Shown here: piece by piece, positions 3,569 to 63,980 of the stretch
How the letters are laid out: the number at the start of each line of letters is the position of its first letter
How positions within the stretch are numbered: the first letter of the stretch is position 1
NCBI GenBank assembly: GCA_963695145.1
Contig: CAVOGB010000009.1
Coordinates: 437,904-501,903 of the forward strand
Direction: 5' to 3'
DNA length: 64,000 nucleotides
Source: Ilumatobacteraceae bacterium
Lineage (GTDB): Bacteria > Actinomycetota > Acidimicrobiia > Acidimicrobiales > Ilumatobacteraceae
Program-made: the position numbers and the translations under genes
Notes under the pieces: generated by a model
Seen by the model: only the letters and a program-made list of their open reading frames with translations
Told to the model about the DNA's origin: nothing
Database searches by the model: none

Positions 3569-3583
3569 GAGAGTATGGTTCTC
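3569..3583. promoter_or_regulatory. Candidate operator dyad GAGAGTATGGTTCTC (site 1 of 9)
   Basis: The 15-bp imperfect palindrome lies in an AT-richer island about 50 nt upstream of the binding-protein ATG. It shares GARART-N3-RTTCTC with eight other promoter sites. Confidence 0.45.
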
Positions 3584-3632
3584 GTCACGTGGTCCGAAAC
3601 GGGGGACCACCTATCACTGAGGGGGATGGTTG

Positions 3633-5111
3633 ATGATCAACACTCGGAGGCGGCTGCCTGCATCGAGGTCGCGCCGCCTGGCCGTCGCGCTGACCGTCGG
3701 GGGTCTGTTGCTCGCGGCGTGCAGCAACTCGAGCGACGACTCGGCGACGACGGCGGCACCGGCCGGCACGGAAGCCGCCGACACGACACCGGCCGACACG
3801 ACCGCCGACACCACCGCCGAGACGACCGCCGACACCACGGCCGACACGACCGCGGACACCACGGCCGACACCACACCGGCCGACACCACACCGGACGTCG
3901 GCACGTTCGAGGCGATCACGGGCGTCCCGGGCGTCACCGACGACGCGATCAACTTCGCCGTGCTCGGCACCGGGCCGTCGAACCCGCTCGGCTACTGCCT
4001 GCTCGAGTGCTACCAGGGCGGCGTCCAGGCCTACTTCGACTACCAGAACAGCCTCGGCGGCGTGAACGGCCGCCAGTTGGCGATCAGCCGCGTCGACGAC
4101 GACGAGGTCGGCAACACCCAGGTCAAGTCGTTGGAACTGATCGGCGACGACACGATCTTCGGGATCTTCGGCGCACCGCTGCAATACGCCGGCTTCACCG
4201 ACATCGGCGCCGCGGGCGTGCCGCTGTACACGACGTTCCCCGCGGCCGGTGACGTGAACGGCTTCGAGAGCAGCTACATCCCGGTCGGGACCCAGTGCGT
4301 CGAGTGTGCCAGCCCGGCCAGCATCTGGGGTGCCAAGGTGGCCGGCGGGACGAAGGCCGCCTCGATCGGCTACGGCGTGTCGCAGGCGTCGAAGGACTGT
4401 GTCGATCGGGCCGAATCGGAGTTCGCCACGTGGGGCGCCGACGCCGGCGTCGAGTTCGTGTACAAGAACAACGACCTGCCCTTCGGTTTCCCCAACGGCC
4501 TCGGACCGGAGGTCACCGCCATGAAGGATGCCGGCGTCGACTACATCACCACCTGCATCGACCAGAACGGTGTGCTGACGCTCGAACAGGAACTCCAGCG
4601 CCAGGGGATGGACAACGTCATCGTCGCCCTGCCGCAGGGATACGGCGACACGGAGTACTTCTCCACGAACGCCGACCTGCTCGAAGGCGACATCATCTCG
4701 ATCCCCTACCGGCCGATGGAGGCCGATCCGGCCTACCCGGCGGTGAAGACGATGCTCGACGCGTTCGCCGCCAGCGGCGTGCAGATCAACGACTACGCCA
4801 TCCAGGGCTGGCTCGGGGCACAGCTGGCGGCGACCGGCATCCTGGCCGCGGGACCGCAGTTCGACCGGGCGAGCACCGTGGCCGCCACGAACGCCATCAC
4901 CGACTACGACGCCGGCGGCATGTTCCATCCGGTCGACTGGTCGACGGCGCACACCGCACCGTCGGAGGGCGACACCTACACGCAGTGCTTCTCGTACCTC
5001 AAGGTGCAGAGCGGCACGTTGGTGATGGCCTCCGATCCGGCCCTGCCGTTCGACTGCTTCGACTTCCCGTTCACCACGTGGACGGAACCGACCCCGACCA
5101 CGTTCGACTGA
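3633..5111 (+). CDS. ABC transporter substrate-binding lipoprotein (LivJ/Leu-Ile-Val-binding family-like)
   Basis: ATG 3633 follows the RBS GAGGGGGA. It has a signal peptide with lipobox LLLAAC, then a Thr/Ala/Asp repeat linker, then a periplasmic-binding-protein-like body. It is the last gene of the liv-type operon. Confidence 0.8.
   Translation: MINTRRRLPASRSRRLAVALTVGGLLLAACSNSSDDSATTAAPAGTEAADTTPADTTADTTAETTADTTADTTADTTADTTPADTTPDVGTFEAITGVPGVTDDAINFAVLGTGPSNPLGYCLLECYQGGVQAYFDYQNSLGGVNGRQLAISRVDDDEVGNTQVKSLELIGDDTIFGIFGAPLQYAGFTDIGAAGVPLYTTFPAAGDVNGFESSYIPVGTQCVECASPASIWGAKVAGGTKAASIGYGVSQASKDCVDRAESEFATWGADAGVEFVYKNNDLPFGFPNGLGPEVTAMKDAGVDYITTCIDQNGVLTLEQELQRQGMDNVIVALPQGYGDTEYFSTNADLLEGDIISIPYRPMEADPAYPAVKTMLDAFAASGVQINDYAIQGWLGAQLAATGILAAGPQFDRASTVAATNAITDYDAGGMFHPVDWSTAHTAPSEGDTYTQCFSYLKVQSGTLVMASDPALPFDCFDFPFTTWTEPTPTTFD
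3774..3896 (+). repeat. In-frame 12-nt (occasionally 15-nt) tandem repeat encoding (P)ADTT about 9 times
   Basis: gccgacacgacc-type units read directly; the protein reads AADTTPADTTADTTAETTADTTADTTADTTADTTPADTTPD immediately after the lipobox. Confidence 0.9.
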
Positions 5112-5130
5112 TCCACGCGGCGTTCTCCTG

Positions 5131-5160
5131 CCGGGCGGCACTCCTGGGAGTGCCGCCCGG
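5131..5160 (+). terminator. GC-rich hairpin after the binding-protein gene
   Basis: ccgggcggcactcc-tg-ggagtgccgcccgg has perfectly complementary 14-nt arms and starts 20 nt after the stop at 5111. No clear U tract follows. Confidence 0.5.
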
Positions 5161-5199
5161 TGCGCGTCACGGTCGATGTCCGGTTTGCTCGCGGGCCGC

Positions 5200-5214
5200 G
5201 GAAATGGTATTCTC
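5200..5214. promoter_or_regulatory. Candidate operator dyad GGAAATGGTATTCTC (site 2 of 9)
   Basis: It lies in the AT-richer stretch gaaatggtattctcctaaaacggaaacc, about 73 nt upstream of the Rieske oxygenase ATG. Confidence 0.45.
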
Positions 5215-5287
5215 CTAAAACGGAAACCTCACTCGTATCGGAACGCTGCCCGGCCACCCCGGGCGCCGCGTGACATCAGGAGCACAC

Positions 5288-6601
5288 ATGCCGAAATTCC
5301 CGAAGCCCGTCGAAGGTAGTTGGACCGAGCACTATCCGGGTCTCGGTACGGCTCCGGTGCCGTATGAGGATTCGTATGATCCTGGGTATTGGCAGCAGGA
5401 GATCGACACGATCTTCACGAAGGAATGGTTGAACGTGGGGCGTGTCGAGCAGCTCCCGCGGGTGGGGAGCTATTTCACCAAGGAGTTCGCTTGGGCGAAG
5501 CGCAGCATCATCATCGTCAAGGATCGTGATGGCACGGTGCGCGCGTTCCACAATGTGTGCCGGCATCGGGGCAACAAGTTGGTGTGGGACGACTATCCGC
5601 AGGAGGAGACGTCGGGGACGTGTCGCCAGTTCACGTGCAAGTACCACGCTTGGCGGTATGACCTGGACGGCAGTTTGAACTTTGTGCAGCAGGAGTCGGA
5701 GTTCTTCGATCTCGACAAGGAGAACCTGGGTCTGGTGCCGGTGGCGTGTGATGTGTGGGAAGGGTTCATCTTCGTCAATCTCGATGATGAGCCGGCCCAG
5801 ACGTTGACGGAGGCGTTGCATCCGTTCAGTGAGGGTCTGGCTGGTTACCCGTTCGGTGCGATGACCCAGGTGTACCGGGCGAAGTCGGAGGTGAAGGCGA
5901 ACTGGAAGTTGTTCATCGATGCCTTCATCGAGTTCTACCACGCCCCGATTTTGCACATGAAGCAGGCCACCGCGGAGGAGGCTCAGAAGCTGGCCGGGTA
6001 CGGGTTCGAGGCGTTGCATTACGACATCTTCAGCCCGCATTCGGTGGTGTCGTCGTGGGGTGGGATGGCTCCGCCGAAGGATCCGAGCATCGTCAAGCCG
6101 TCGGAGAACGCGATGCGCAGCGGCCTGTTCGGGCCGTGGGACAAGCCGGAGGTGATCAACAACAACGAGAACCTGCCGCCGCTGGTCAACCCGGCCCGCC
6201 ACAAGGCGTGGGGCACCGACACGTTCATGGTGTGGCCGAACATGATGATCCTGATCTGGGAGCCGGGTTGGTATCTCACGTACCATTACTGGCCGACCGG
6301 TCCGAGCGAGCACCTGTTCGAGACGGCGTTGTATTTCGTGCCACCGAAGAACGCCGGTGACCGCATCGCCCAGGAGATGGCGTTCTCGACGTTCAAGGAG
6401 TACGCCTTCCAGGACGCCAACACCCTCGAGGCCACCCAGTCGATGATCGAGACCGGCGTCGTCAAGACGTTCGTGCTCAACGACCAAGAAGTGCTGTGCC
6501 GCCACCACCACGCCGCGGTGCGCGCCCAGGTCGAAGCCGGCGGCCGCCCGGCCAGCTATCCGTGGATGCCGGCCGCCACGCCCGAACCGGCCGACGCCTG
6601 A
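5288..6601 (+). CDS. Rieske [2Fe-2S] ring-hydroxylating oxygenase, alpha (catalytic) subunit-like
   Basis: ATG 5288 follows the RBS AGGAG. The Rieske motif is CRHRG...(long spacer)...CKYHAWRY. The C-terminal catalytic domain is of typical length for the family (437 aa total). Confidence 0.85.
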   Translation: MPKFPKPVEGSWTEHYPGLGTAPVPYEDSYDPGYWQQEIDTIFTKEWLNVGRVEQLPRVGSYFTKEFAWAKRSIIIVKDRDGTVRAFHNVCRHRGNKLVWDDYPQEETSGTCRQFTCKYHAWRYDLDGSLNFVQQESEFFDLDKENLGLVPVACDVWEGFIFVNLDDEPAQTLTEALHPFSEGLAGYPFGAMTQVYRAKSEVKANWKLFIDAFIEFYHAPILHMKQATAEEAQKLAGYGFEALHYDIFSPHSVVSSWGGMAPPKDPSIVKPSENAMRSGLFGPWDKPEVINNNENLPPLVNPARHKAWGTDTFMVWPNMMILIWEPGWYLTYHYWPTGPSEHLFETALYFVPPKNAGDRIAQEMAFSTFKEYAFQDANTLEATQSMIETGVVKTFVLNDQEVLCRHHHAAVRAQVEAGGRPASYPWMPAATPEPADA

Positions 6602-6617
6602 AACGCAGGAGAACCCC

Positions 6618-7001
6618 ATGACCGACACCCTTTCCCCGACCGTCACCCCTGTCTTCGTCGCTACAACGCCGGCACCGAAGGAACTGCCCGCCCAGTTCGC
6701 CGACCTCGCACCGTTCACCGACTGGATCTTCGACACGTGGCGCCCGCGTTATGAGAAGCGGCTGGCGTCGACGATGGACGAGATGCAAGCGTTCTACGAC
6801 GCGATCCTGCCGCGCATGGCCGACATCATCGACTACGCCAACGGGTTCGACATCGACGACCTGCCCGACGACGTCCGCAACCTGCTGCTGTTGACGTTCG
6901 CCTTCTGCGAAGCGTCGTTCCCCGTCGAAGCCTGGCGTCAACCACGCGTGCCCGACAGCGGCGCCGCCGACATCACCATGGTCAGCGAACCACCCCTCTG
7001 A
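6618..7001 (+). CDS. Hypothetical protein, 127 aa, coupled to the Rieske oxygenase
   Basis: ATG 6618 follows the RBS AGGAG, 16 nt after the Rieske stop. Codon usage is coding-like. I recognise no family. Confidence 0.55.
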   Translation: MTDTLSPTVTPVFVATTPAPKELPAQFADLAPFTDWIFDTWRPRYEKRLASTMDEMQAFYDAILPRMADIIDYANGFDIDDLPDDVRNLLLLTFAFCEASFPVEAWRQPRVPDSGAADITMVSEPPL

Positions 7002-7031
7002 CCCGACGCGTCGGAACTTTCGATCGACTCG

Positions 7032-8174
7032 ATGGACATCGGCACGTTCCGCCAGGAACTGACCGCGTGGCTCGACGCCCACGCTGACGAGCTGGCACCA
7101 CCCTTCGCGGGCAACGGCACGCTCGACGAACAGATGGCCCAGTACCGCCTGGTGAAGGGCGCGCTCTGGGACGCCGACTTCGGACGCTACGGCTGGCCCG
7201 AACCGGTCGGCGGGCTCGGTGGCCCCACGATGTTCCGCGCCGTCGTCGGCGAGGAGATCGCCGGCCGGGAACTCGCCGACCCGAGCATCTGGACGATGAT
7301 CGAGGTGCTCGCCCCGACGATCAGCGCGTTCGGTTCGCCCGAACTCGTCGCCGACATGGTGCCGCGCTTCCTGCGCGGCGAGGAGCTGTGGTGCCAGGGC
7401 TTCTCCGAGCCGGGCGCCGGCAGCGACCTCGCCTCGCTCACGTGTCGGGCCGAGGCCGTCGACGGCGGATGGCGCATCAACGGCCAGAAGGTCTGGACGA
7501 GCTACGCCCAGTACGCACAGCGCTGCGTGCTGCTCGCCCGCACCGGCGAACCCGGCAGCGCCCACCGCGGCATCACCGCATTCTTCGTCGACATGGACTC
7601 GCCCGGCATCTCCCCGAGCCCGATCGAGGCCCAGCACGGCCGCCTCGAGTTCGCCGAGGTGTTCTACGACGACGTGTTCGTGCCCGACGAGCGCCGGCTC
7701 GGCGACGTCGGCCAGGGGTGGCAGGTGGCGATGGACGTGCTGCCGTACGAGCGCTCGACCACGTTCTGGCACCGCGGCGCCCACCTCCACCACCGCTGCG
7801 ACCAGCTGGTGGCGCGGGTGGCGGACGGAGACGTCGTGCCGGCGACGACGGCCAAGGCGCTCGGCGAAGCGTTCCAAGCGGTCATCGCGTTCCGCAGCCG
7901 GTCGCGTGACACCCAGTTCCGCCTCGCCGCCGGCGAACCGCTCGGTGCCGAGACGTCGATCGACAAGATCCTGATCGCCACCGCCGAGCAGACCCTGCTG
8001 GAAACGGCCCGCGACGTGCTCGGCGGAGTCATCGAGTTCGACGACGACACGTTCGCCGACCGCTGGCGCGAGGAGTACCTCTACTCCAAGGCGGCCACGA
8101 TCTACGGCGGCACGTCGGAGATCCAACGCAACATCGTCGCCCGTCGCCTGCTCGACCTCGGAGCCGAGTCGTGA
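7032..8174 (+). CDS. Acyl-CoA dehydrogenase, catalytic-type subunit of an alpha/beta pair
   Basis: ACAD N-terminal, middle and C-terminal domains are recognisable. WCQGFSEPGAGSDL and the catalytic-Glu motif IYGGTSEIQRNIV are present. Confidence 0.9.
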   Translation: MDIGTFRQELTAWLDAHADELAPPFAGNGTLDEQMAQYRLVKGALWDADFGRYGWPEPVGGLGGPTMFRAVVGEEIAGRELADPSIWTMIEVLAPTISAFGSPELVADMVPRFLRGEELWCQGFSEPGAGSDLASLTCRAEAVDGGWRINGQKVWTSYAQYAQRCVLLARTGEPGSAHRGITAFFVDMDSPGISPSPIEAQHGRLEFAEVFYDDVFVPDERRLGDVGQGWQVAMDVLPYERSTTFWHRGAHLHHRCDQLVARVADGDVVPATTAKALGEAFQAVIAFRSRSRDTQFRLAAGEPLGAETSIDKILIATAEQTLLETARDVLGGVIEFDDDTFADRWREEYLYSKAATIYGGTSEIQRNIVARRLLDLGAES

Positions 8175-9196
8175 CCGGGATCGACGACGCCGTCCGGGTC
8201 GACGCGGTTCACATCGACGAAGGCGACCTGGCGATGCTCGCCGACGGGTTCTCGTCGGCGATGCTCGCCGCGCCCGGTCCGGGCGAGGCCGACGCCGCGC
8301 TGTACGACCTCGGTTGGGGCGAACTGCTCGCGGCGGCGCCGACTCAGGGCGCGGCGATGGCGTTCACCGCGCTCGGCACGACCGGATCGTCGGCCGCCAT
8401 CGTCGACGACGTGCTCGCCCATGCCCTCGGGCTCGACGTCACGCCGACGACGTGCGTCGTGCTCCCCCGCCCGCACCGGTCGACACCGCCGGCCGGACGC
8501 GACGGCGATGTCATCCGCATCGACGGTCTCGTCTCGGCCCGCATCGACACCGCCGACACGGTCGTCGTCGCCATCGCTGCGGGGCCCGATCACCGCGTGG
8601 AACTCGTCGCCATCGATCCGGACCAGGTGCGAACCGCGCCGGTCGCCGGCCTCGACCCCGGCTCCCCGTACCGCCGACTCGTGATCGACCTGCCCGCCGA
8701 TGCGCTCGGTTCGCGCGGGGACGGGTCCGGAACGAACGGAGCGTGGGAGGCGGCGGTCGCCGCGGGGCGGGTGGCGCTCAGTCACCAGCTGATCGCCGGC
8801 GCACGGTGGATGCTCGACGCGGCGCGGACCCACGCCGTCGACCGCGAGCAGTTCGGTCGATCCGTGGCGTCGTTCCAGGCCGTCCGGCACAAGCTCGCCG
8901 AGTCGCTCGTGGCGATCGAAGGCGCGGCCTCGGTGGCGAACGCCTGCACCGACGACGTCGACCCGCTGCTCGCCGCCGTCGCCAAGTCGCTCGCCGGCAA
9001 GGCGGCGCGCACGACGGCAACGAACGCCCAGCAGGTGCTGGCCGGCATCGGCTTCACGACCGACCACGACTTCCACCGCTGGCTGAAGCGCACGCTCGTG
9101 GTCGACACGATCCTCGGCTCGTCGAGTTCGATCCCGACGGAGATCGGCACCGAGCTCCTCGCTCGCGGTACCGCGCCGCGGCTGCTCGAGTTGTAA
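8171..9196 (+). CDS. Acyl-CoA dehydrogenase family protein, non-catalytic-type partner subunit
   Basis: GTG 8171 overlaps the upstream stop (GTGA). The ACAD C-terminal fold is present (REQFGRSVASFQAVRHKLAE), but the catalytic position reads GIGFTTDHDFHRW with no Glu. Confidence 0.8.
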   Translation: MTGIDDAVRVDAVHIDEGDLAMLADGFSSAMLAAPGPGEADAALYDLGWGELLAAAPTQGAAMAFTALGTTGSSAAIVDDVLAHALGLDVTPTTCVVLPRPHRSTPPAGRDGDVIRIDGLVSARIDTADTVVVAIAAGPDHRVELVAIDPDQVRTAPVAGLDPGSPYRRLVIDLPADALGSRGDGSGTNGAWEAAVAAGRVALSHQLIAGARWMLDAARTHAVDREQFGRSVASFQAVRHKLAESLVAIEGAASVANACTDDVDPLLAAVAKSLAGKAARTTATNAQQVLAGIGFTTDHDFHRWLKRTLVVDTILGSSSSIPTEIGTELLARGTAPRLLEL

Positions 9197-9247
9197 CGCC
9201 GCACCACCGTCCACGACGATGTCGTGGCACACCGACCCGGGGGACCC

Positions 9248-10087
9248 ATGATCACGCTCGACCAGTTGCTCACCTGTCTGACGGACGTCGAACCCGTCGA
9301 CGATCCGACGCGCTGGCGGGCGGGCACGCTCGGCCTGGCCGGCGGTCACGTGTTCGGGGGTCAGATGATCGGCCAAGCGGCGGTCATCGCCGCCAGGATG
9401 TTGCCGGACATGGCGGTCAAGTCGGTCGACGTGGTGTTCCCCCGCGGTGCCCGCGACACCGGGTCACTCGACTACGACGTCACCACGCTGCACGCCGGAA
9501 CGGCGTACGCCACGCTGCGCATCGATTCGTCGCAGCCGGGTCGCGACGGCACCCCGGCCGTCGGGTTCGGATCCACCGTGATGTGCCACCGCCCGGCGTC
9601 CGGCGTCGAGCACGACCAGCCGATGCCGGAATCGGTCGGGCAGCCTGACGACGCCCGCCGGGTCGATCTCGGGCTGCTGCCCTGGGAGACCCGCATCGTC
9701 GGCGACACCGACCTCGACGATCGTCGGGCCCAGCCGAACCAGCTGTCACTGTGGTGGCGGGTCGGGGAACAGCTCGGTGACGATCCGGCGATCCACCAGT
9801 CGCTGCTCGCGTTCGGCAGTGAGCTGACCCTCATCGGTACGGCGCTGCTCCCGCACGACGAGTGGAGTCAACATGACGCCCACGTCGCGCTGCGGACCTC
9901 GGTCATCGGCCACCACGTGCTCTTCCACCGCCCGTTCCGGATCGACGACTGGCTGCTCGTCACCCAGTCGAGTCCGGTGGCCACCGGCGGATCGGCCTAC
10001 GGAACCGGCCACGTGTACAACCGCGAGGGCGCGCTCGTCGCCAGCTTCGCCCAACAGTCGATGATCCGGGTCGAGGAGGCTTCCTGA
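9248..10087 (+). CDS. Acyl-CoA thioesterase II (TesB-like, double hotdog)
   Basis: ATG 9248 follows GGGGGA (the alternative start is GTG 9224). HVFGGQMIGQAAVIA and a C-terminal ...GHVYNREGALVASFAQQSMIR match the TesB family pattern. Confidence 0.8.
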   Translation: MITLDQLLTCLTDVEPVDDPTRWRAGTLGLAGGHVFGGQMIGQAAVIAARMLPDMAVKSVDVVFPRGARDTGSLDYDVTTLHAGTAYATLRIDSSQPGRDGTPAVGFGSTVMCHRPASGVEHDQPMPESVGQPDDARRVDLGLLPWETRIVGDTDLDDRRAQPNQLSLWWRVGEQLGDDPAIHQSLLAFGSELTLIGTALLPHDEWSQHDAHVALRTSVIGHHVLFHRPFRIDDWLLVTQSSPVATGGSAYGTGHVYNREGALVASFAQQSMIRVEEAS

Positions 10088-11709
10088 TGGCACAGCACGC
10101 ATGGTCGGAACGGTCGGTGCCGGCGGAACTCGTCGCGCGGTACGAACACGACGGATGGTGGACGGACGACACGCTCGGCGCCAAGGTCGCCGAGTGGCTC
10201 GCCGCGACGCCGAACGCCACGGTCAACGTCCACTCCCGCACCAACGAGTGGCACGGCACGTACGCCGACGTCGACGACGAGGCCCGCCGACTCATCGCCC
10301 TGCTCCGCGCCGAGGGCATCGAGCCAGGTGCCGTCGTCGCCTTCCAGCTGCCGAACTGGCGCGAAGCCATCGTGTCGTTCGTCGCCCTGGCGATGGGTGG
10401 CTACGTGCTCGTGCCGATCGTGCACATCTACGGTCGCAAGGAGGTCGCCTTCATCCTCACCGAGTGCGGCGCCGACGCCTACATCGCGCCCGCCTCCTAT
10501 GGCCACGTCGACTACACCGCCATCGTCGACGAGGCAGCCCCCGACGGGCTGCGCGTGCACGTGATGGTCGGCGACGGTGCCGATCGGCCCGCCCCGGCCG
10601 GCATCCGTCGCATCGGGTGGGATGCGCTCGACCTGCTCGACCCGGTCGCCGACCTACCGACGCCGCGCGCCGACGAGGTGGCGGTGCTCGCCTACACCTC
10701 GGGCACCACCAGCGACCCGAAGGGCGTGATCCACGACCACCGGACCATGCTGAGCGAGCTGCGGCACATGAACGGATGGGTCGCCGGAAGGGCGACGCTG
10801 ATGGGCTCCCCCGTCACCCATGCCACCGGCATGCTCGGCGCCGTGCTCGGCCCGCTCGGACGCGGCGGCGACATGCACGTGATCGACCGGTGGGATCCCG
10901 GCCACGCGCTCGAGGTGATGGCCGCCTACGACATCAGCGGTGGCACCGGCGCCTCGATCTTCCTGGCCACGCTCCTCGACCACCCCGACTTCACGCCGGC
11001 GCACGCCGCCAACATGGAACGCATCGGCCTCGGCGGCGCACCGGTGCCCGTGGAACTCGGACGGCGGGCCGAACGGCTCGGCATCAGGATCATCCGCGCC
11101 TACGGCTCGACCGAGCATCCCTCCACCACCGGCAGCCAGTTCGACGACCCGGCCGATCAGCGCCACACGACCGACGGTCCCGCCCTGCCGGGCGTGGAGC
11201 TCCGCCTCGTCGACCCCGACGGCGCCGACGTCCCGGCGGGTGTCGCCGGCGAGATCCTGTCGCGGGGCCCGGAGCTGTGCCTCGGCTACACCAATCCGGC
11301 GCTCGACGACGCCTTCGACGACGACGGCTGGTACCACACCGGCGACATCGGCGTCGTCGACGAACACGGCTGCCTCACGATCACCGATCGCGTGAAGGAC
11401 ATCATCATCCGCGGCGGCGAGAACCTGTCGGCCGCCGAGATCGAGAACGCCATCGCCGTCGTTCCCGGCGTCGCCGAGGTCGCCGTCGTCGCCGCGCCCG
11501 ACGCCCGGCTCGGCGAGCACGCCTGCGCGGTGATCCGCATGGCGGCCGGCACCGACCCGATCGAACTCGCCGACCTCCTCCCCCACCTCGAGGCGGCCGG
11601 CCTGGCGCGCCAGAAGTGGCCAGAGGAACTGCGCGTCGTCACCGACTTCCCGCGCACCGCCTCCGGCAAGGTCCGCAAGGTCGACCTCCGCGCCGCCCTC
11701 CGCGAGTGA
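10087..11709 (+). CDS. AMP-dependent acyl-CoA synthetase/ligase
   Basis: The AMP-binding motifs LAYTSGTTSDPKGV and GWYHTGDIGVVDEHGCLTITDRVKDIIIRGGENL are present. The ATG shares 1 nt with the upstream TGA. Confidence 0.9.
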   Translation: MAQHAWSERSVPAELVARYEHDGWWTDDTLGAKVAEWLAATPNATVNVHSRTNEWHGTYADVDDEARRLIALLRAEGIEPGAVVAFQLPNWREAIVSFVALAMGGYVLVPIVHIYGRKEVAFILTECGADAYIAPASYGHVDYTAIVDEAAPDGLRVHVMVGDGADRPAPAGIRRIGWDALDLLDPVADLPTPRADEVAVLAYTSGTTSDPKGVIHDHRTMLSELRHMNGWVAGRATLMGSPVTHATGMLGAVLGPLGRGGDMHVIDRWDPGHALEVMAAYDISGGTGASIFLATLLDHPDFTPAHAANMERIGLGGAPVPVELGRRAERLGIRIIRAYGSTEHPSTTGSQFDDPADQRHTTDGPALPGVELRLVDPDGADVPAGVAGEILSRGPELCLGYTNPALDDAFDDDGWYHTGDIGVVDEHGCLTITDRVKDIIIRGGENLSAAEIENAIAVVPGVAEVAVVAAPDARLGEHACAVIRMAAGTDPIELADLLPHLEAAGLARQKWPEELRVVTDFPRTASGKVRKVDLRAALRE

Positions 11710-27004: not shown

Positions 27005-27019
27005 GAAATTATCATTCTC
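27005..27019. promoter_or_regulatory. Candidate operator dyad GAAATTATCATTCTC (site 3 of 9)
   Basis: It lies in the divergent ALDH (26890, -) / ACAD (27091, +) promoter region, inside the AT-rich stretch ttgtgaaattatcattctcatc. Confidence 0.45.
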
Positions 27020-34929: not shown

Positions 34930-34944
34930 GGAAATGTGGTTCTC
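34930..34944. promoter_or_regulatory. Candidate operator dyad GGAAATGTGGTTCTC (site 4 of 9)
   Basis: It lies in the divergent promoter region between LLM (34898, -) and SDR (35018, +). Confidence 0.45.
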
Positions 34945-39933: not shown

Positions 39934-39948
39934 GAGAAGAACGTTTCC
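39934..39948. promoter_or_regulatory. Candidate operator dyad GAGAAGAACGTTTCC (site 5 of 9)
   Basis: It lies in the divergent region between ferredoxin-P450 (39843, -) and the SnoaL-SDR-TetR operon (39987, +). Confidence 0.4.
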
Positions 39949-41189: not shown

Positions 41190-41837
41190 GTGACCCGCGG
41201 GCATGCCAACCTGACTGCCGTGGAACCGGACGACGCACGTCCCGATCGCGACGCCAAGCACGCCGACGAGCGCGAGCGGCTCTACCGCGCCGGCTGGGTC
41301 GTGCTGCGCCGCAACGGGTACGCCAACGCCGGCATCACCGAGATCCTGGGCGAGGCCGGGCTCGGCACACGGGCGTTCTACCGGCACTTCGACTCCAAGG
41401 ACGACCTCCTGGTGGCGATGTTCACCGACAACGCCGCGGCGACCGCACGGCGCCTCGCGGACGAGGTCGACCTCGCCGGATCGCCGCTGGCCCGTTTGCG
41501 GGCCTGGATCGACGAGATCCTCGCCCTCGCCGACGACCCCCGCCACGGTGAGGCGGCGCGGATGTTCATCTCCCCCACGATGCCCGGGGTGTTCGACGCC
41601 GCCGGCGACCAGGCGATCGCGGAACTGCGGGCGCCATTGCGCGCCGCGCTCGCCGCCGGCGCCGAGGCCGGCGACTTCCCCGACTGCGATCCCGATGCCG
41701 ACGCCGCCACGATCCACGCCATCGTCTGGCGGCTGTTCATCGATGCGATCAACGGCCGGGCGACGATGGGTCGCGACGATGCGCGTGCCCACGTCGAGCG
41801 CTTCGCCCTGCGTGCCCTCGGCGCCCGGCCCGACTGA
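41190..41837 (+). CDS. TetR family transcriptional regulator
   Basis: GTG 41190 lies 4 nt after the SDR stop. The HTH reads RERLYRAGWVVLRRNGYANAGITEILGEAGLGTRAFYRHF. Confidence 0.85.
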   Translation: MTRGHANLTAVEPDDARPDRDAKHADERERLYRAGWVVLRRNGYANAGITEILGEAGLGTRAFYRHFDSKDDLLVAMFTDNAAATARRLADEVDLAGSPLARLRAWIDEILALADDPRHGEAARMFISPTMPGVFDAAGDQAIAELRAPLRAALAAGAEAGDFPDCDPDADAATIHAIVWRLFIDAINGRATMGRDDARAHVERFALRALGARPD

Positions 41838-43060: not shown

Positions 43061-43075
43061 GAAAAAAGCGTTTTC
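43061..43075. promoter_or_regulatory. Candidate operator dyad GAAAAAAGCGTTTTC (site 6 of 9, most degenerate)
   Basis: It lies in an AT-rich island about 67 nt upstream of the ACAD ATG 43142 and is followed by CACTCgattaGAGTG. Confidence 0.35.
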
Positions 43076-53611: not shown

Positions 53612-53626
53612 GAGAATGACACTCTC
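53612..53626. promoter_or_regulatory. Candidate operator dyad GAGAATGACACTCTC (site 7 of 9)
   Basis: It lies in the divergent region between SDR (53474, -) and thiolase (53684, +). Confidence 0.45.
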
Positions 53627-54922: not shown

Positions 54923-54923
54923 C

Positions 54924-57350: not shown

Positions 57351-57392
57351 GCGATGAGCGAAACCACCGGATACGGAGGTTTCGCTCATCGC
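57351..57392. repeat. REP-like family 1, third copy, inverted orientation
   Basis: gcgatgagcgaaaccaccggatacggaggtttcgctcatcgc; the loop ggatac is the reverse complement of the gtatcc loop at 45.6 kb. It lies between convergent stops 57336 (+) and 57392 (-), and its last base belongs to the TAG stop. Confidence 0.9.
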
Positions 57393-58678
57393 TACTTGGC
57401 GGGCGGGCCTTTGGGGACGTCGCGGAACGGGGTGTTGCGGTCGTACGAGAGTTCACGGGGCATGCCGAGGACGCGTTCGGCGATGACGTTGCGGGCCATC
57501 TCCGTCGTGCCGCCGCCGAGTGTCGACACCTGCCGCAGCAGGTAGTCGTTGCCGATCTCGGCCGCTGCGCCGTCGGTGTCGTCCCAGGCGGTCGCGCTCG
57601 AGCCGGCGAGCTCGAAGGCGATCGACGTCAGGCGCGTCGTCGACACGCCGGAGTACAGCCGGCCGACCGACGCCGCCTGGTCCGACATCTTGCCGGTCGA
57701 GATGCCCTCGGCGATCCGGTGTTGGATCACCTCGCCGACGAGTTCCAGCATGTACGCCTCGCCGAGCAGGTCACGGCTCACCGGGTCGTCGAGGCGACCG
57801 CTGTCGCGGGCGATGTCGACGTTGTGCAGGCTGCGTCGCGAGCTGCCGGCGTTGCCGGTCGCGGAGGTGACGTACGGGGAGTTGTGCAGCATCCGCTCGT
57901 GGAACATCCAGCGGGTGCCGATCGTCCAACCCTCGTTGACGTCGCCGATCCGGGCGGAGTCGGGCACGCGCACGTCGGTGATGAACTCCTGGCAGAAGTC
58001 CTTGAACCCGTTGAGCATCTCGATGCGGTGGATCTCGATGCCGGGCTGGTGCAGCGGGAAGATGAACACCGACAGCCCGCGGTGCTTCGGCACGTCCCAG
58101 TTCGTCCGGGCGAGGCACAGGCCCCAGTCGGAGAACCAGGCGCCGGTCGTCCAGACCTTCGAGCCGTTGAGGATCCACTCGTCGCCGTCGCGCACGGCGG
58201 TCATCAGCGCGCCCGCCACGTCGGAACCACCACTCGGTTCGGACAGCAACTGCATCCACAACTCCTCGCCCTTGATGATCGCCGGGAGGTGGCGGAGCTT
58301 CTGCTCGTGCGTGCCGAACTCGAGCAGCACGGCGGCGCACGGCGAGAACGTCGGCGCCTGGAGACGGAAGGGATAGGCGAACCCCGACAGCTCCTCGCGC
58401 AACGCCATCTGGTGCGCCGGAGTGAGCCCGAGGCCGCCGTACTCGCGGGGGAAGCAGACACCGGCCAGGCCGGCGTCGTAGAACTTCCGTTGCAGCTGGC
58501 GAGCTTCCTCGACCTCGGCCAGTTCCTCCTCGTCGGTGAACCGTGGCCGCAGGTACCCGACCTGATCGGACGGCGTGCTCGCCGGCAGGGTGCTGCGGAT
58601 CCAGGCCCGAGCGCGGGCCCGGAACTCGTCGACGGACTCCGGCTCGGCCGCCACGATCTCGTCGCGCAGATCGGTCAT
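57392..58678 (-). CDS. Acyl-CoA dehydrogenase, catalytic-type subunit
   Basis: ATG 58678 overlaps the upstream stop (ATGA). LSEPSGGSDVAG and LGGGTTEMARNVIAERVLGMP are present. Confidence 0.9.
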   Translation of the reverse strand: MTDLRDEIVAAEPESVDEFRARARAWIRSTLPASTPSDQVGYLRPRFTDEEELAEVEEARQLQRKFYDAGLAGVCFPREYGGLGLTPAHQMALREELSGFAYPFRLQAPTFSPCAAVLLEFGTHEQKLRHLPAIIKGEELWMQLLSEPSGGSDVAGALMTAVRDGDEWILNGSKVWTTGAWFSDWGLCLARTNWDVPKHRGLSVFIFPLHQPGIEIHRIEMLNGFKDFCQEFITDVRVPDSARIGDVNEGWTIGTRWMFHERMLHNSPYVTSATGNAGSSRRSLHNVDIARDSGRLDDPVSRDLLGEAYMLELVGEVIQHRIAEGISTGKMSDQAASVGRLYSGVSTTRLTSIAFELAGSSATAWDDTDGAAAEIGNDYLLRQVSTLGGGTTEMARNVIAERVLGMPRELSYDRNTPFRDVPKGPPAK

Positions 58679-59847
58679 GACGCCACCTCCATGGTCTCGA
58701 CGTTGGCCGTTCGCTCCTCGGCGTGACGCTGGATCAGGTCGGCGAGCCGCCGGCGGTGATCGGCCGGGCCGGCGAACGCCGCTCGGTTGACGACGATGCG
58801 CCGCAGGTACAGGTGCAGGTCGTGTTCGAACGTGACACCGATGCCACCGTGGATCTGGACGCAGTCGTGGGCCAGGTCGGGGCCGTACTGACCGATGTAG
58901 GCGGCCGCGGCAACGACGAGGTCGGCCGCCTGCGGATCGTCGGTGGCCACCGCGACCGCGGCCGCGTCGGCGATCGCGTGGCTCGCGTCGAGCCACGACT
59001 GCATGTCGGCGAAACGATGCTTCAGCGCCTGATACGACGCCAGCGGACGACCGAAGGCGTACCGGTCGAAGGCCCACTCGACGGTCATGTCGAACGCCGC
59101 CTGCATCGCACCGACCGATTCGGCCGCGGCGATCGTCAGGCCGAGCAGCGTCGCCCACTCGACCTCGTCGCCCGCGCCACCGGCCTCGCCGACGAGGGCG
59201 GTGAGCGGGAGCCGGACGTCGTCGAAGTCGACGGCACCGAAGCGCCGCGTGAGATCGGTCGACTTCAGCGAGCGGATCGACACACCCGGCGTGTCGCGCG
59301 GCACGAGCACGTTCGTGAGGCCGTCGCCGGTGCGTCCGGTGACGAGGAGCAGGTCGGCGGTCGGGGCGGCGTCGACCGGCCGCTTGGTGCCGTTGAGGAC
59401 GACCTCGTCGCCGTCGATGCGCACGTCGAGCACCCACCCGCCGAGATGGTCGTGCGGCGGCGGCTCCGCCAGGCACCACGCCGCGGTCGACGTGCCGGCG
59501 ACGAGCGCCTCCACCGCCTCGTCATGGCCCTCACCGCCGTGATGGCTGAGCAGCGCGGCGACCACGTTCGTCGGCATCAACGGGCCGGGCGCGGCGTGAC
59601 GGCCGAACTCGTGGGCGATCAGCGTGAGGTCGACCAGCCCGTGCTCGCCCACCGCTCCTCCCCCGTGTTGCTCGTCGACGAGCAGGCTCGTCCAACCGAG
59701 CTCGGCGCCGCGCTGCCAGTACTTCGCCGGCTCGCCGCTCGGCTCGTCGCGCAGGTCGCGCAACACGTCGACCGGGACGAGTTCGTCGAGGAACGTCGCC
59801 GTCGTCTCGCGGAAGAGCGATTGGTCGGGGGTCGGGTTGAGCAGCAC
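58675..59847 (-). CDS. Acyl-CoA dehydrogenase family protein, partner subunit
   Basis: GTG 59847 follows the RBS AAGGAG. RYAFGRPLASYQALKHRFAD is present, and the C-terminal motif reads IHGGIGVTFEHDLHLYLRR. Confidence 0.85.
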   Translation of the reverse strand: MLLNPTPDQSLFRETTATFLDELVPVDVLRDLRDEPSGEPAKYWQRGAELGWTSLLVDEQHGGGAVGEHGLVDLTLIAHEFGRHAAPGPLMPTNVVAALLSHHGGEGHDEAVEALVAGTSTAAWCLAEPPPHDHLGGWVLDVRIDGDEVVLNGTKRPVDAAPTADLLLVTGRTGDGLTNVLVPRDTPGVSIRSLKSTDLTRRFGAVDFDDVRLPLTALVGEAGGAGDEVEWATLLGLTIAAAESVGAMQAAFDMTVEWAFDRYAFGRPLASYQALKHRFADMQSWLDASHAIADAAAVAVATDDPQAADLVVAAAAYIGQYGPDLAHDCVQIHGGIGVTFEHDLHLYLRRIVVNRAAFAGPADHRRRLADLIQRHAEERTANVETMEVAS

Positions 59848-60020
59848 GTCACTCCTTGCCGACGCCGACGTGCGGTGGCACGTTCTCAGCACCGGAGAAC
59901 CCCATTATCGCACCTCTCGCCGCAATGCACAAAGTGCTCGGCGCCACCGAGCAGCGACCCTCGAGCGTCAGCAGCGCTGGTCCACGTGTCGTTCGCCGAC
60001 CGAGACGTAGAGTCTCGGTG

Positions 60021-60431
60021 ATGGCCGGTGGTTTGAACTACAAGGGCCTCAACGCCAAGAAGGCGTCGGCCGTCGGCGTGGCACTCATCACGCTGCTGCA
60101 GAACGACGACGTCCGCAAAGCCCTGGGTGGTGCCGGCGCCGGTCTCACCGCCTGGTCCAAACGAACCCGGGCGCGCTTCGACGCGCCGCTGACCGACCGG
60201 TACGGCCAGGGCGCTCTGCTGCACCGCATCGACGCCCTCGCGACGGTGATCCCCGAGTTCGCGACGCTCGATGCCGAATTTGCGGCGGAGCTGCGCACGG
60301 CCGAGGTGGAGCTTCGGCGGGCCGCGTTCGTAGCCGGCCAGATGCCGGTTTCGAAGCGTGTCCCGGCTCAACGCTCGATTGCGCGGCGACTCGACAAGCT
60401 CGAACGCGCCCTCATCGACGCGGTCCTGTGA
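60021..60431 (+). CDS. Hypothetical protein (136 aa, helical/charged)
   Basis: ATG 60021 (MAGGLNYKGLNAKKASAVGVALITLL...). I recognise no family. It is flanked on both sides by family-2 repeat arms. Confidence 0.5.
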   Translation: MAGGLNYKGLNAKKASAVGVALITLLQNDDVRKALGGAGAGLTAWSKRTRARFDAPLTDRYGQGALLHRIDALATVIPEFATLDAEFAAELRTAEVELRRAAFVAGQMPVSKRVPAQRSIARRLDKLERALIDAVL

Positions 60432-60555: not shown

Positions 60556-61558
60556 TCAGGCGGCGCGCTCGGCAGCCGTTGCGATCCGGTCACCGACGTC
60601 GGTGGTCGAGCCGACGCCGGCGTGCTCGCAGGCGGCGCGCATCCGTTCGGCGATGTCCTGCTCGCCGAGGAAGTCCATCATCATCGCCGCGGACAGCACC
60701 GCGGCGGTCGGGTTGGCCTTGTTCTGACCGGTGATGTCGGGCGCCGATCCGTGGACCGGCTCGAACATCGACGGCCCGGTGCGGGCCGGGTTGAGGTTGG
60801 CGCTGGCGGCGAGTCCGATGCCGCCCGACACCGCGCCGCCGAGGTCGGTGAGGATGTCGCCGAACAGGTTGTCGGTGACCACGACGTCGTAGCGGTGCGG
60901 GTCCTGCACGAAGTAGATGCAGGCCGCGTCGGCGTGCTGGTACGCCGTGGCGACGTCGGGATAGTCGGCAGCCACGAGGTTGAACGTCCGCTCCCACAGG
61001 TCGCCGGCGTACACGAGGATGTTCGTCTTGTGCACCATCGTGACGTGCCTGCGGTCGCCGCGGCGGCGGGCGAGTTCGAACGCGTAGCGGATCGCCCGCT
61101 CGACGCCCATCCGGGTGTTCACCGAGCCCTGTGTCGCCACTTCGTCGAGCGTCCCCTTGCGGAGGAATCCGCCGTCGCCGATGTACGGACCCTCGGTGTT
61201 CTCCCGGATCACGACGAAGTCGTGCGGCTCGGTGTGCCCCGGCGCGGTCCCCTGGAACGGCCGCTCGTTGATGTACAGGTCGAAGGCGATCCGCATCCCG
61301 ACGATCAGCCCGCGTTCGAGGATGCCCGGGCGTGACGTCGGGCCGGCCGGCCGCACCGAAGAGGATGGCGTCGAAGCCGCGCAGCTGCTCGATCGTCGCC
61401 TCGCTGAGCACCTCGCCGTCGCGCAGGTAACGCCCGCCGCCGAGGTCGAAATCGGTCGTGTCGATGTCGGCGCCGGCGGCGCGCAGCACCTTGAGGGCCT
61501 CGGCGGTGACCTCCGGGCCGATGCCGTCGCCACCGATCACCGCGATGCGATGGGTCAT
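60556..61558 (-). pseudogene. leuB: 3-isopropylmalate dehydrogenase-like (isocitrate/isopropylmalate dehydrogenase family), frame-broken near 61324-61330
   Basis: The N-terminus MTHRIAVIGGDGIGPEVTAEALKVL...AILFGAAGRPDVTPG is in the frame of ORF 60590..61558. The remainder ILERGLIVGMRIAFDLYINERP...NLFGDILTDLGGAVSGGIGLAAS...MFEPVHGSAPDI is in the frame of ORF 60556..61533. The junction is ccc ggG c atc. Confidence 0.8.
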
Positions 61559-62798
61559 GCCGTCGTCCTCCCGTCGTGGCGGCCGCGGCGGCCACTTCGG
61601 CCCGCACCTCGTCGCCGTGTTCGTCGAGCAGCGGCGCCCGCCGGTTGACGCCCGCCTTCGTGCGCGTGAACTTGATCGGCGTGTTGGCGTAGACCGTCGG
61701 CCGTTCGCTCCCCGGCGTCTGGAACGCCACGAGCATCTCCCGCGCCGGCAGGTGGGGATCGTCGAACAGCATCTCGTTGTTGTTCACCGGTCCGACGGGC
61801 ACCCGGCCGCCGAGCGCTTCGAGCACCTGCGGCCGTGGTCCGCTCGGCGAGCCATCCCTCGATGATCTCGAGCACCATCGCCCGGTTCTTGTTGCGGGCC
61901 CGGTTGTCGCAGGTGCGCTCGTCGTCGATCAGGTCGGGCCGCTCCATCACCTCGCACAGGATCGGCCAGTGATTGGTCGGCGCGGCGAGGGCGACGGCCC
62001 CGTCGGCGGTGGCGAACAACCCGAACGGCAGGTGGATCGGATGCTCGTTGCCGTGGGGAACGTCGTGGCGACCCCAGTGGCTCCAGCGGTACACGGTCTC
62101 CTCGCACAGCGCGACGAGGGCGTCGTACATCGCCACGTCGACGAACTGCCCGCGCCCGGACCTGCCGCGCTTCGTGGACGGCCGACACGATCCCGAGGGC
62201 GAGCAGCGTGGCGGGATAGATGTCGCCGACGCTCGGGCCGATGCGCGTGCCGAACGTGCCCGGCGCGCCCGTGGTCGGCGGTGAGCCCGCTCATCGCCTG
62301 GGCGACCACGTCGAAGGCCGGCCAGTCGGCGTAGGGGCTCTCACCGGTGCGCGGGTCGCCGAAGCCGCGGACGGCGCCGTACACGAGCCGCGGGTTGATC
62401 TCCGCCAGCGCCTCGTAGCCGAGGCCGAGCTTGTCGAGCACGCCGACGCGGAAGTTCTCGACGATCACGTCGGCGTCGCGGACGAGGTCGCGCAGCGTGT
62501 CGCGGTCGGCCTCGGTCTGCAGATCGAGCACGATGCTGCGCTTCGAGCGGTTGACGCTGGCGAAGTACCCGCCGTAGTGATGTTCGGTGTCGCCCTTCGT
62601 GAACGGCCCGCCGTAGCGGGTGAAGTCGCCCTTCGGCGGCTCGACCTTGATCACGTCGGCACCCAGGTCGGCGAGCAGCATCGTGCAGAACGGGCCGGCC
62701 AGGGCGGCGGTGAGATCGACGATGCGGATGTCGGTGAGGGGACCGCCGCGCTCAGGCAGGGGCAGCACCGCTCGTTCGTGTCCGAGTGTGTGGTCCAT
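61555..62798 (-). pseudogene. Family III (CaiB/BaiF-type) CoA-transferase with at least three successive +1 frame breaks (about 62278-62282, 62163-62167, 61829-61833) and an unresolved 3' end
   Basis: ATG 62798. Conserved segments sit in four consecutive frames: IRIVDLTAALAGPFCTMLLADLGADVIKVEPP...AQAMSGLTA | TTGAPGTFGTRIGPSVGDIYPATLLALGIVSAVHEAR | RSGRGQFVDVAMYDALVAL...IIEGWLAERTTA | QVLEALGGRVPVGPVNNNEMLFDDPHL...LLDEHGDEV. Confidence 0.8.
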
Positions 62799-62870
62799 CT
62801 CGTCGTCCCTCGTCCGGTTGCGTCCCGACAGGCCGCACGGCGGCAAACGGAACTTGGACTCTCAGTCTAG

Positions 62871-62885
62871 GAGAGTAGAGTTCTC
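62871..62885. promoter_or_regulatory. Candidate operator dyad GAGAGTAGAGTTCTC (site 8 of 9)
   Basis: It ends 3 nt before ATG 62888, in the divergent region with the CoA-transferase gene (62798, -). The adjacent ctctcagtctaggagag is a second inverted repeat. Confidence 0.45.
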
Positions 62886-62887
62886 AC

Positions 62888-63839
62888 ATGCGCATCGGCT
62901 TGATGGTCGGCCCCGAACGGAACCGCTACGCCACCAAGGTGCAGCGCATGATCGACGACGCCGTGTGGGCGGAGACGAACGGGTTGAGCACCGTCTGGAT
63001 CCCCCAGGTGCCCGACGAGTTCGACGCCATGACCGCCGCGGCCCTGATCGCGCAGGCGACGTCGCGCATCGAGATCGGCACCGCCGTCGTGCCGCTGCAG
63101 TCGCGCCATCCGGTGGCGCTGATCCAGCAGTCGCTGTCGACCCAGTTGGTCGCCCAGGGTCGGTTCACGCTCGGCCTCGGCCCGTCGCACCATTGGATCA
63201 TCCAGGACATGCTCGGGCTCCCCTACGAACGTCCCGCGGCGCTGACCGCCGACTATCTCGACACGCTCGACGCGGCGATGGCCGGACCCGGCCCGGTCGA
63301 CGTGGAGAACGACAGCTTCACGATCCACAACCCGATGCACGTCACCGACGAGCCGCGCATGCAGGTGCTCCTCGCGGCACTCGGCCCGGTGATGCTCCAG
63401 TTGGCCGGGTCGCGCACCGACGGCACGATCCTCTGGCTCGCCGACGAAAAGGCCATCGAGTCGCACATCGCGCCACGCCTGCACGCCGCGGCCGCCGAAG
63501 GCCGGCCGACCGGCGCCGCGCATCGTCGCCGGCGTGCCGATCTGTCTGTGCCGGCCGGGCGAGGTCGACGCCGCCAAGGCCCGCGCCGACCGGGTGCTCA
63601 GTGAAGCGACCGTGTCGCCGAACTACCAGCGGCTCCTCGACCAGGGAAACGCCACCGGGGTGTCCGACATCCTCGCGGCGGGCGACGAGGACATGATCCG
63701 CGAGCGGCTCGCCTCGTTCGCCGCCGCCGGGGTGACCGACATCTCGGTGCGCGTCCTGCCGATCGGTGAGGGCCGCGAGCAACTCCTCGAGTCGAGCCGC
63801 CGCACCCGCGAGTTCGTCGCCGACCTCGCCTCCCGCTGA
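62888..63839 (+). pseudogene. LLM-class (F420/flavin-dependent, luciferase-like) oxidoreductase, frame-broken near 63500-63518
   Basis: MRIGLMVGPERN...LSTVWIPQVPDEFDAMT...HIAPRLHAAAAEGRP is in ORF 62888..63604. The continuation APRIVAGVPICLCRPGEVDAAKARADRVL...VRVLPIGEG... is in the frame of ORF 63534..63839. Confidence 0.75.
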
Positions 63840-63846
63840 CCTTCTG

Positions 63847-63920
63847 CGATCTCGGTCGGATTCGGGCCGGAAACCGGACCAGATCCGACCGAGATCGGTG
63901 ATGGAGCGGATCTCGGTCGG
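63847..63920. repeat. REP-like family 2, locus B: 51-nt hairpin plus an isolated arm (mirror image of locus A)
   Basis: cgatctcggtcggattcgggccggaaaccggaccagatccgaccgagatcg (63847-63897; 14-15 bp perfect outer stem) is followed by ggatctcggtcgg (63908-63920). It starts 8 nt after stop 63839. Confidence 0.85.
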
Positions 63921-63965
63921 AATTGGGGCGACGCACCGCGACTTGCAATCGGGCGGGGGGTTTGA

Positions 63966-63980
63966 GAGAATGATGTTCTC
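63966..63980. promoter_or_regulatory. Candidate operator dyad GAGAATGATGTTCTC (site 9 of 9)
   Basis: It lies in the AT-richer stretch tttgagagaatgatgttctcatctgaggga at the right window edge, presumably upstream of a gene that starts outside the window. Confidence 0.4.

Follow-up and report, generated by a model that had tools for sequence, protein, structure and literature searches.

A conserved 15-bp dyad, GAGAAY-N3-RTTCTC, marks ten promoter regions and approximately 14 transcription units in a 64,000-nucleotide stretch of an Ilumatobacteraceae genome (GenBank assembly GCA_963695145.1, contig CAVOGB010000009.1, positions 437,904 to 501,903), which is referred to here as the window. The dyad is real and conserved: we observe the sites themselves, their confinement to intergenic DNA, their retention in other genomes and their co-occurrence with TetR genes. 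We consider it probable that the dyad is the operator of a homodimeric TetR-family repressor that coordinates a conserved catabolic regulon, with TetR_C, a protein whose gene is predicted to lie beyond the window, as the main regulator.

Genes were called with a codon-usage model trained on the window and annotated with Pfam, and the operon extents given here are predictions. The approximately 62 called genes leave 4,041 nt of intergenic DNA (6.3% of the window), and the window has a G+C content of 69.4%. Three TetR proteins are distinguished, TetR_A (17919-18563), TetR_B (41190-41837) and a third, TetR_C, known from relatives, and loci or contigs fetched from other genomes or metagenomes carry L-numbers (L001, L036, L119, etc.). 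In a scan of species-representative genomes, the best matches to the luciferase-like monooxygenase (LLM) encoded at 62888-63604 are Ilumatobacteraceae metagenome-assembled genomes (MAGs; 80-89% identical), and the ENA contigs L035 and L036 have 94.5% DNA identity to the window at 58.5-63.9 kb. Exact matches to window proteins were also looked for, and there were none.

The dyad in the window and in other genomes

An earlier note on this DNA had described nine copies of the form GARART-N3-RTTCTC, and all nine 15-mers are found where it placed them. The strict pattern has four matches against 0.08 expected in the 64-kb window (26 against 10.4 with two mismatches allowed), and the symmetric pattern GARAAY-N3-RTTYTC with at most one mismatch has nine against 0.38 expected, all nine of them intergenic. 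A matrix built from the nine sites recovers ten distinct intergenic sites at 17.7 bits or more, with a top coding match of 15.4 bits, and thereby adds a new site at 59895-59909; leave-one-out scores with this matrix range from 12.7 to 20.6 bits. A symmetrised matrix from other genomes only, applied with a threshold of 12 bits, picks out precisely the same ten sites, none of them in coding DNA (10/10 intergenic, binomial p ~ 1e-12), which establishes, within the window, the proposed enrichment in intergenic over coding DNA. Dinucleotide-shuffled intergenic DNA gives a mean of 0.05 matches to the same matrix. A composition artefact was ruled out on the basis of these shuffles and because intergenic G+C (mostly 0.60-0.70) is near the window mean; the islands that carry the sites, described earlier as AT-richer than their surroundings, are so only slightly (GC of 0.49-0.69 versus 0.69).

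Several details of the earlier description change with these results. The distance from site to gene, given as 3 to about 140 nt, is corrected to 2 to ~90 nt to the nearest start codon, while the count of five sites in divergent regions stands for the original nine and becomes six of ten once the new site is included. The nine sites had been treated as equals; all are present, but two are weaker variants, namely 39934, which reads GGAAAC..CTTCTC on the minus strand, and 43061, which has TTTTC arms, and these two have the lowest leave-one-out scores (13.5 and 12.7 bits, respectively). Nor does the operator span the whole window, since sites are absent from two blocks, 12.9-26.9 kb and 45.5-52.7 kb. 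The suggested tie between a Liv-type importer and the oxygenase, acyl-CoA dehydrogenase (ACAD), thiolase and P450 operons is upheld by a single operator type, with the importer represented by its binding-protein gene. The importer permease and ATPase genes lie upstream and have no site directly before them in the window; in L123, the site heads the entire importer operon.

The consensus GAGAAY-N3-RTTCTC derives from 89 distinct external and the 10 window sites, in which a mean of 5.0 of 7 position pairs are complementary, and a set of 46 distinct external 15-mers gives GAGAAT-RNN-ATTCTC. External copies are often perfect palindromes (GAGAATAGTATTCTC, GAGAATAGGATTCTC and GAGAATATCATTCTC). With respect to orthologous promoters, on whose conservation the earlier proposal had been made to depend, 9 of the 10 sites are kept in related Ilumatobacteraceae or Acidimicrobiia contigs: 62871 and 63966, for example, are found in L035/L036 and also in L001, and 59895 in L035/L036. 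Equivalents of the tenth, 53612, occur at the SDR/thiolase junction of a Streptomyces locus (L009) and beside the SDR homologue in a second Streptomyces (L010) and a Mycobacterium (L021) locus. Among the fetched loci, the dyad adjoins LLM homologues in Acidimicrobiaceae, Streptomyces, Actinocorallia, Streptosporangiaceae and Mycobacterium, and it directly precedes homologous AMP-ligase/ACAD/enoyl-CoA hydratase (ECH), amidohydrolase and SDR/thiolase units in Streptomyces, Streptosporangiaceae, Mycobacterium and Acidimicrobiaceae. When the regions upstream of the LLM genes are aligned (the window, L001, L036, L004, L005, L006 and L003), the 15-mer stays constant 2-4 nt before the ATG in all seven genomes, with flanks that diverge.

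The genes behind the ten sites encode the substrate-binding protein of the Liv-type ABC importer, a Rieske oxygenase, two P450s, a ferredoxin, luciferase-like monooxygenases, many ACADs, CoA ligases, CoA transferases, thioesterases, an ECH, thiolases and SDRs. Judged from these genes, the substrate would be a branched or alicyclic lipid that is degraded in a CoA-dependent manner; among the annotated window genes, none of the steroid-ring type (KstD, Hsa) was seen.

Tandem or paired operators are not a general feature of the window, with secondary matches within 45 nt at only 2 of the 10 sites against ~0.9 expected. At 3569 and 62871, an extra half-site (TTCTC/CTCTC; 3557-3561 and 62859-62863) precedes the GAGAG arm by exactly 7 nt and forms an everted repeat, TTCTC-N7-GAGAG, that is not seen at the other window sites; TTCTC-N7-GAGAA is likewise present upstream of TetR_C in L036 (9921-9940), and L003 has a complete second site 22 bp upstream. 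Other palindromes also occur near the dyad. One of 14 bp, GTTCGTCAACGAAC (53629-53642), starts 2 nt past operator 53612 and may be the site of a second factor in the SDR/thiolase divergent promoter. In four Acidimicrobiaceae loci (L015, L016, L017 and L029; ~9895-9935), a further palindrome, TTGACAGTGCAAAATCCTGTCAA, is conserved in the LLM promoter, where it precedes the GAGAA..TTTCC site by ~40 nt; it may be bound by another regulator.

Candidate regulators

No counterpart of TetR_C is encoded in the 64-kb window. In L036, its gene at 10001-10705 lies ~4.6 kb past the equivalent of site 63966, after genes for an amidohydrolase, an ECH and two ACADs in that order, and L035 likewise has TetR_C downstream; because of this synteny with 94.5%-identical relatives, TetR_C is expected ~4.6 kb past the right edge of the window. 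In L001, the 63966 equivalent is followed by genes for an amidohydrolase, two unknown proteins, an ACAD and an AMP-ligase, and then by TetR_C, flanked by two sites. We observe TetR_C orthologues in 13 fetched loci from seven lineages, one Mycobacterium among them, and all 13 genes have a site nearby, either at most ~180 nt upstream or no more than ~65 nt from the stop codon (in L035-L038, a strong site overlaps the stop codon), whereas such a site is almost never present at the 14 other TetR clusters of the same loci. Motif density at TetR_C loci reaches 2-9 sites per 20 kb. The helix-turn-helix of TetR_C, FTVQEVVDRSKQSLRSFYQYFDGKHELLLALFE, with the predicted DNA-reading helix ...SKQSLRSFYQYF..., is nearly invariant from Acidimicrobiia to Mycobacterium, which matches the invariance of the operator. 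An AlphaFold model has an ordinary TetR fold (pLDDT 84), and its best matches in a fold search, EthR2/Rv0078 and acyl-CoA-binding FadRs, show generic TetR similarity that identifies no effector. From these patterns, TetR_C is most likely the main, multi-operon regulator.

TetR_B is associated with a one-position variant of the dyad. As described earlier, site 39934 precedes the SnoaL-SDR-TetR operon, and a 39934-type site is kept before the operon of close TetR_B relatives in a metagenome scan; in L042 and L043, the stop codon of TetR_B and the orthologue of the ACAD at 43142 have a 43061-type site directly between them. A further 75 distant homologues (28-54% identity) are encoded in DUF1214-sulfotransferase-TetR-SDR operons. 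Where enough upstream sequence is available (26 informative loci), a dyad stands at the operon start, ~2.4 kb upstream, or immediately upstream of the TetR gene in 20 cases. This dyad, GAAAAY-N3-RTTTTC, has a background density of 0.76 matches per 10 kb and carries A/T at positions 3/13 of the main motif: position 3 is A in 79% of TetR_B-family sites versus G in 78% of TetR_C-locus sites. When perfect 6+3+6 dyads were enumerated without bias in the TetR_B loci, GC-rich chance palindromes dominated and nothing emerged.

Two external matrices, C-type from TetR_C loci and B-type from TetR_B-family loci, were used to compare the window sites. Only 43061 scores as B-type (log2 ratio of -4.0), while 3569, 53612 and 62871 are clearly C-type, 27005, 59895 and 63966 lean toward C-type, and 5200, 34930 and 39934 are near neutral (log ratio of ~0 for 39934). 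TetR_B is probably a local regulator and a candidate binder of 43061, ahead of the ACAD-kinase pair, and perhaps controls its own operon via 39934. The two regulons probably overlap, with the main regulator off the window; this division of the sites between the TetRs is what we infer from the two site flavours.

The conserved operon of a DUF1214 protein, a sulfotransferase-family protein, a TetR and an SDR occupies 7465-10591 of L109 and recurs in ~20 other metagenome loci, including L052, L064, L069, L070, L074, L077, L080, L082, L083, L087, L090, L091, L095, L097, L100, L103 and L108.

The earlier note had instead proposed TetR_B as a single autoregulated repressor, which would serve all ten sites and treat G/A at position 3 as tolerated variation. 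Such a role would fit the conserved position of 39934 before its operon, the near-identical dyad at the operon starts of its homologues (the 20 of 26 loci above) and the scores of at least 12.8 bits that the B-type matrix gives to all ten window sites; furthermore, TetR_B and TetR_C, which are not close relatives, have in common an unusual arginine in the recognition helix (TRAFY versus LRSFY). We nevertheless regard it as unlikely, as the sites flanking TetR_B, 39934 and 43061, are the two weakest matches, and the distant homologue loci carry one site each, as a local regulator would, in contrast to the density at TetR_C loci. The motif-rich loci of Mycobacterium, Acidimicrobiaceae and Ilumatobacteraceae contain TetR_C, and, in place of a closer TetR_B relative, only TetRs with 32-37% identity and no strong site nearby were found there. 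With its family tied to the A/T variant at positions 3/13 and with TetR_C expected off the window, TetR_B is no longer taken as the sole repressor.

Much less probable is a binder from outside the TetR family, such as the AraC-type protein whose gene adjoins TetR_C in relatives, or an unseen factor, in which case the TetR link would be one of neighbourhood only. An AraC gene does flank TetR_C in L001 and L035-L038, L124 has one as well, and Streptomyces loci have the motif with no TetR_C nearby. AraC proteins typically bind direct repeats, however, and a perfect 6+3+6 palindrome suits a TetR dimer (tetO-like geometry). In Mycobacterium (L021) and Acidimicrobiaceae (L015-17 and L029), TetR_C is found with a site beside it, no homologue of the L001 AraC protein was detected in L021, and two separate TetR families each have the dyad at their own genes.

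TetR_A, the second TetR of the window, was rejected as the regulator: no site lies in its promoter, where a different dyad is present, and no orthologue was found next to sites elsewhere. That dyad, TGTCA-N9-TGACA (TGTCATACTGATCTTGACA, 17869-17887), lies in the 69-nt region divergent from an amidohydrolase operon and is probably the operator of TetR_A itself. The 12.9-26.9 kb block, TetR_A included, has no GAGAAT-type site.

Possible promoter overlap, proposed mechanism and related systems

At the LLM gene 62888, there is no space for a ribosome-binding site before the ATG, so the mRNA would be leaderless. Operator positions 6-11 fall at -12..-7 from this ATG and read TAGAGT in the window; in relatives the centre is TAGGGT, TAAAGT, TATAGT or TACGAT, that is, always TANNNT, 7 nt before the ATG. 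The actinobacterial -10 consensus is TANNNT. The operator centre at this gene is predicted to be the -10 box of a leaderless promoter, so that a repressor dimer bound there would exclude RNA polymerase. TANNNT centres are also present at 3569 (TATGGT) and 27005 (TATCAT), where an overlap of operator and promoter core is plausible; a position on or beside the core promoter thus has sequence support for a subset of sites and is presumed for the others.

The least credible reading is that the motif mainly serves as an extended -10 promoter element, recognised by a housekeeping or an alternative sigma factor: TANNNT at positions 6-11 in several sites, placed exactly at -12..-7 of the leaderless ATG, and the orientation of the site toward the downstream gene in three non-divergent regions would agree with it, but it does not account for the two-fold symmetric conservation of the GAGAA/TTCTC arms, the ~70% of sites without TANNNT, the varying distance to the start codon, the dyad of the distant locus L109, just downstream of a separate TTGACA/-10-like pair, or a sigma-70 promoter scan of 62.7-64 kb that called no promoter.

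A number of observations weigh against a TetR-family operator with TetR_C as the main regulator. Since the window matrix served as the seed for the external ones, these are not fully independent of it. Site 53612 lies outside the coverage of all Ilumatobacteraceae loci fetched, so its support comes from Streptomyces and Mycobacterium, and the location of TetR_C beyond the window edge is projected from relatives only. Directly upstream of TetR_C, L035-L038 have only a degenerate copy of the site (6 bits), and in the Streptomyces loci no TetR_C gene lies within 10 kb of the motif. The two site flavours overlap, and 5200, 27005, 34930 and 39934, with a GGAAA/GAAAT left arm, have no confident assignment. 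Finally, TANNNT centres are in the minority, with 4 among the 10 window sites and 26 among the 89 external ones.

The system would act by repression; the binding, the repression and the effector are read here from sequence patterns and from analogy. A repressor on or next to the -10/transcription-start region would block RNA polymerase, by occlusion of the -10 hexamer itself at the leaderless LLM promoter, with TetR_C predicted to read GAGAA-type sites and TetR_B GAAAAY-N3-RTTTTC. An effector, probably an acyl-CoA intermediate by analogy with KstR, KstR2 and FadR, would release the repressor.

The closest parallel is KstR (Rv3574) of mycobacteria, whose operator is TnnAACnnGTTnnA (Kendall et al. 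2007, PMC1995591). Both systems combine a TetR-family regulator with a short palindromic operator whose arms resemble AGAAC/GTTCT and which recurs in many, often divergent, lipid-catabolic promoters (fadE, fadD, echA, thiolase-like ltp, P450, Rieske oxygenase), and in both, regulator and motif are conserved across genera. The KstR operator, however, has 14 bp with a 2-bp centre, whereas in the window operator the length is 15 bp, the centre 3 bp and the ends G/C. One match to the KstR pattern occurs in the window, at 49260 inside a GH63-like coding region, which is consistent with chance (9 of 100 shuffles give at least one), and there is none to the KstR2 motif AnCAAGnnCTTGnT. Against the KstR model NCBIfam NF033703, with a cut-off of 280 bits, TetR_C scores 21.6, TetR_B 21.3 and the Mycobacterium TetR_C 23.8, and TetR_A is not listed; no NCBIfam equivalog model is reached by any of the TetRs. 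Sequence searches of the PDB give family-level TetR matches only, those to KstR being marginal and that to KstR2 covering only the helix-turn-helix of TetR_A (E ~ 1e-4). Identity with KstR or KstR2 was ruled out by these motif, NCBIfam and PDB searches, and the caution of the earlier note in not equating the dyad with the KstR operator was well placed in light of the spacing, the single chance match and the 21-24 bits.

The geometry resembles that of TetR-tetO, with an odd-length 15-bp palindrome that has a central base pair and is sized for one homodimer, a regulator gene adjoining an operator and, at a subset of sites, a predicted overlap of operator and promoter; TetR, in contrast, controls one divergent gene pair, while here there are at least 10 promoters in 64 kb and a motif conserved from Acidimicrobiia to Streptomyces and Mycobacterium. 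Similarly, the FadRs of Bacillus subtilis, Thermus thermophilus and Sulfolobus, and KstR2, have the TetR fold, repress beta-oxidation-type genes and are released by acyl-CoA. The structures that best match the TetR_C model in fold include FadRs (TM [target] of 0.68-0.74), but at the level of the generic TetR fold only, with 15-20% identity, and the NCBIfam FadR model NF053878 gives 28-30 bits versus a cut-off of 200. The literature search returned no description of the motif, and as its coverage was incomplete, "undescribed" is provisional; one apparent match to the motif proved to be primer sequences only.

A more ambitious proposal is that TetR_C is an undescribed KstR-like master repressor of an uncharacterised lipid or terpenoid pathway, that pathway, regulator and operator have stayed together since before the split of Acidimicrobiia and Actinomycetes, and that TetR_B reads the single-position (3/13) variant. 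We put this forward tentatively and on balance lean against the full combination; if true, it would amount to a natural circuit of two repressors, whose cross-talk at the hybrid sites would be graded. The kind of system is well known and we propose no new kind of mechanism; what stands out is the conservation across actinobacterial classes, the operator doubling as a putative leaderless -10 box and the possible two-repressor arrangement.

Acidimicrobiia, Ilumatobacteraceae among them, are abundant soil and water bacteria that are mostly uncultured, and to our knowledge their gene regulation is essentially unmapped. The putative operator offers a handle, from sequence only, that groups the ~14 transcription units (importer, oxygenase, P450, ACAD and thiolase) into one catabolic programme, which is also present in Streptomyces and Mycobacterium, and that could be used to predict regulons and pathway boundaries in MAGs. 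It also nominates TetR_C as a specific candidate regulator family, and two TetRs that would differ in one operator position provide a clean specificity comparison.

Site map and minor observations

The ten sites and the genes next to them are compiled below.

Table 1. Putative operators in the window, their neighbouring genes and the copies found in other genomes
Feature	Position	Strand	Sequence	Context	Copies elsewhere
Operator	3569..3583		GAGAGTATGGTTCTC	46 nt before substrate-binding-protein gene 3630-5111; centre TATGGT fits a -10 box	Upstream of the binding-protein gene in L122, L123, L124
Operator	5200..5214		GGAAATGGTATTCTC	Before operon 5270-11709 (Rieske oxygenase, unknown, ACAD, ACAD, thioesterase, AMP-ligase)	L122, L123, L124, ahead of the Rieske gene (identical or nearly so)
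Operator	27005..27019		GAAATTATCATTCTC	Divergent region, ALDH operon (-, 23473-26890) versus operon 27091-33891 (+; ACAD-ACAD-AMP-ligase-thioesterase-(P450-SDR))	L119, as GAAATTAACATTCTC
Operator	34930..34944		GGAAATGTGGTTCTC	Between LLM gene 33921-34898 (-) and SDR gene 35018-35839 (+)	Identical copy in L119
Weak hybrid operator	39934..39948	-	GGAAACGTTCTTCTC	Divergent region; left, ferredoxin-P450-SDR-thiolase-like (-, 35882-39843); right, SnoaL-SDR-TetR_B-hydrolase-CMD (+, 39987-43003)	L119, L039, L040, L043
TetR_B	41190..41837	+		Pfam TetR_N	
Variant operator	43061..43075		GAAAAAAGCGTTTTC	66 nt before the pair ACAD (43142-~44447) and APH-kinase (44448-45551)	L042, L043
Operator	53612..53626		GAGAATGACACTCTC	Between SDR gene 52710-53594 (-) and operon 53684-57336 (+; thiolase-ECH-ChsH2-OB-thiolase-like)	
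Operator	59895..59909	-	GATAATGGGGTTCTC	Before ACAD-ACAD operon (-, 57392-59892), divergent from open reading frame (ORF) 60018-60431	L035, L036, as GATAATCAGGTTCTC
Operator	62871..62885		GAGAGTAGAGTTCTC	2 nt before ATG of LLM gene 62888-63604 (on to ~63839); centre TAGAGT; divergent from CoA-transferase/isopropylmalate-dehydrogenase-like (Iso_dh-like) genes (-, 60556-62846)	
Operator	63966..63980		GAGAATGATGTTCTC	Best, nearly perfect palindrome; by synteny before an Amidohydro_2 gene past the window edge	L001:6786 (84 nt before amidohydrolase gene 6885-8111), L036:15338

Frame breaks by single-base changes are apparent in several genes (11717-12935, 29406-30920, 44330-44451, 61555-62846 and 63534-63839). 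The ACAD frame is off by one base from the ATGA stop/start junction at 44448-44451, the LLM gene 62888-63604 goes on in a different frame past ~63600 (to ~63839), and both CoA-transferases and one AMP-ligase cover their Pfam profiles only in part. A comparison of L035 with L036 reveals gene fragmentation of the same kind in the close relative L035. This suggests indel errors of long-read assembly, not pseudogenes.

The catabolic cluster is interrupted by a site-free island (45562-52673) that encodes a glyoxalase, a DUF1905/OmdA protein, a GH63-like glycoside hydrolase, a glucose-6-phosphate dehydrogenase and a PhyH-family protein. As called, the GH63-like ORF (47946-50528) and the glucose-6-phosphate dehydrogenase ORF (50392-51798) overlap by 137 nt, and one of the two starts is probably wrong. 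Ahead of this island, the ACAD gene is immediately followed by that for the APH-type kinase (43142-45551), after the only GAAAA/TTTTC-type operator of the window, a pairing of domains that we take to recall eukaryotic ACAD10/ACAD11.

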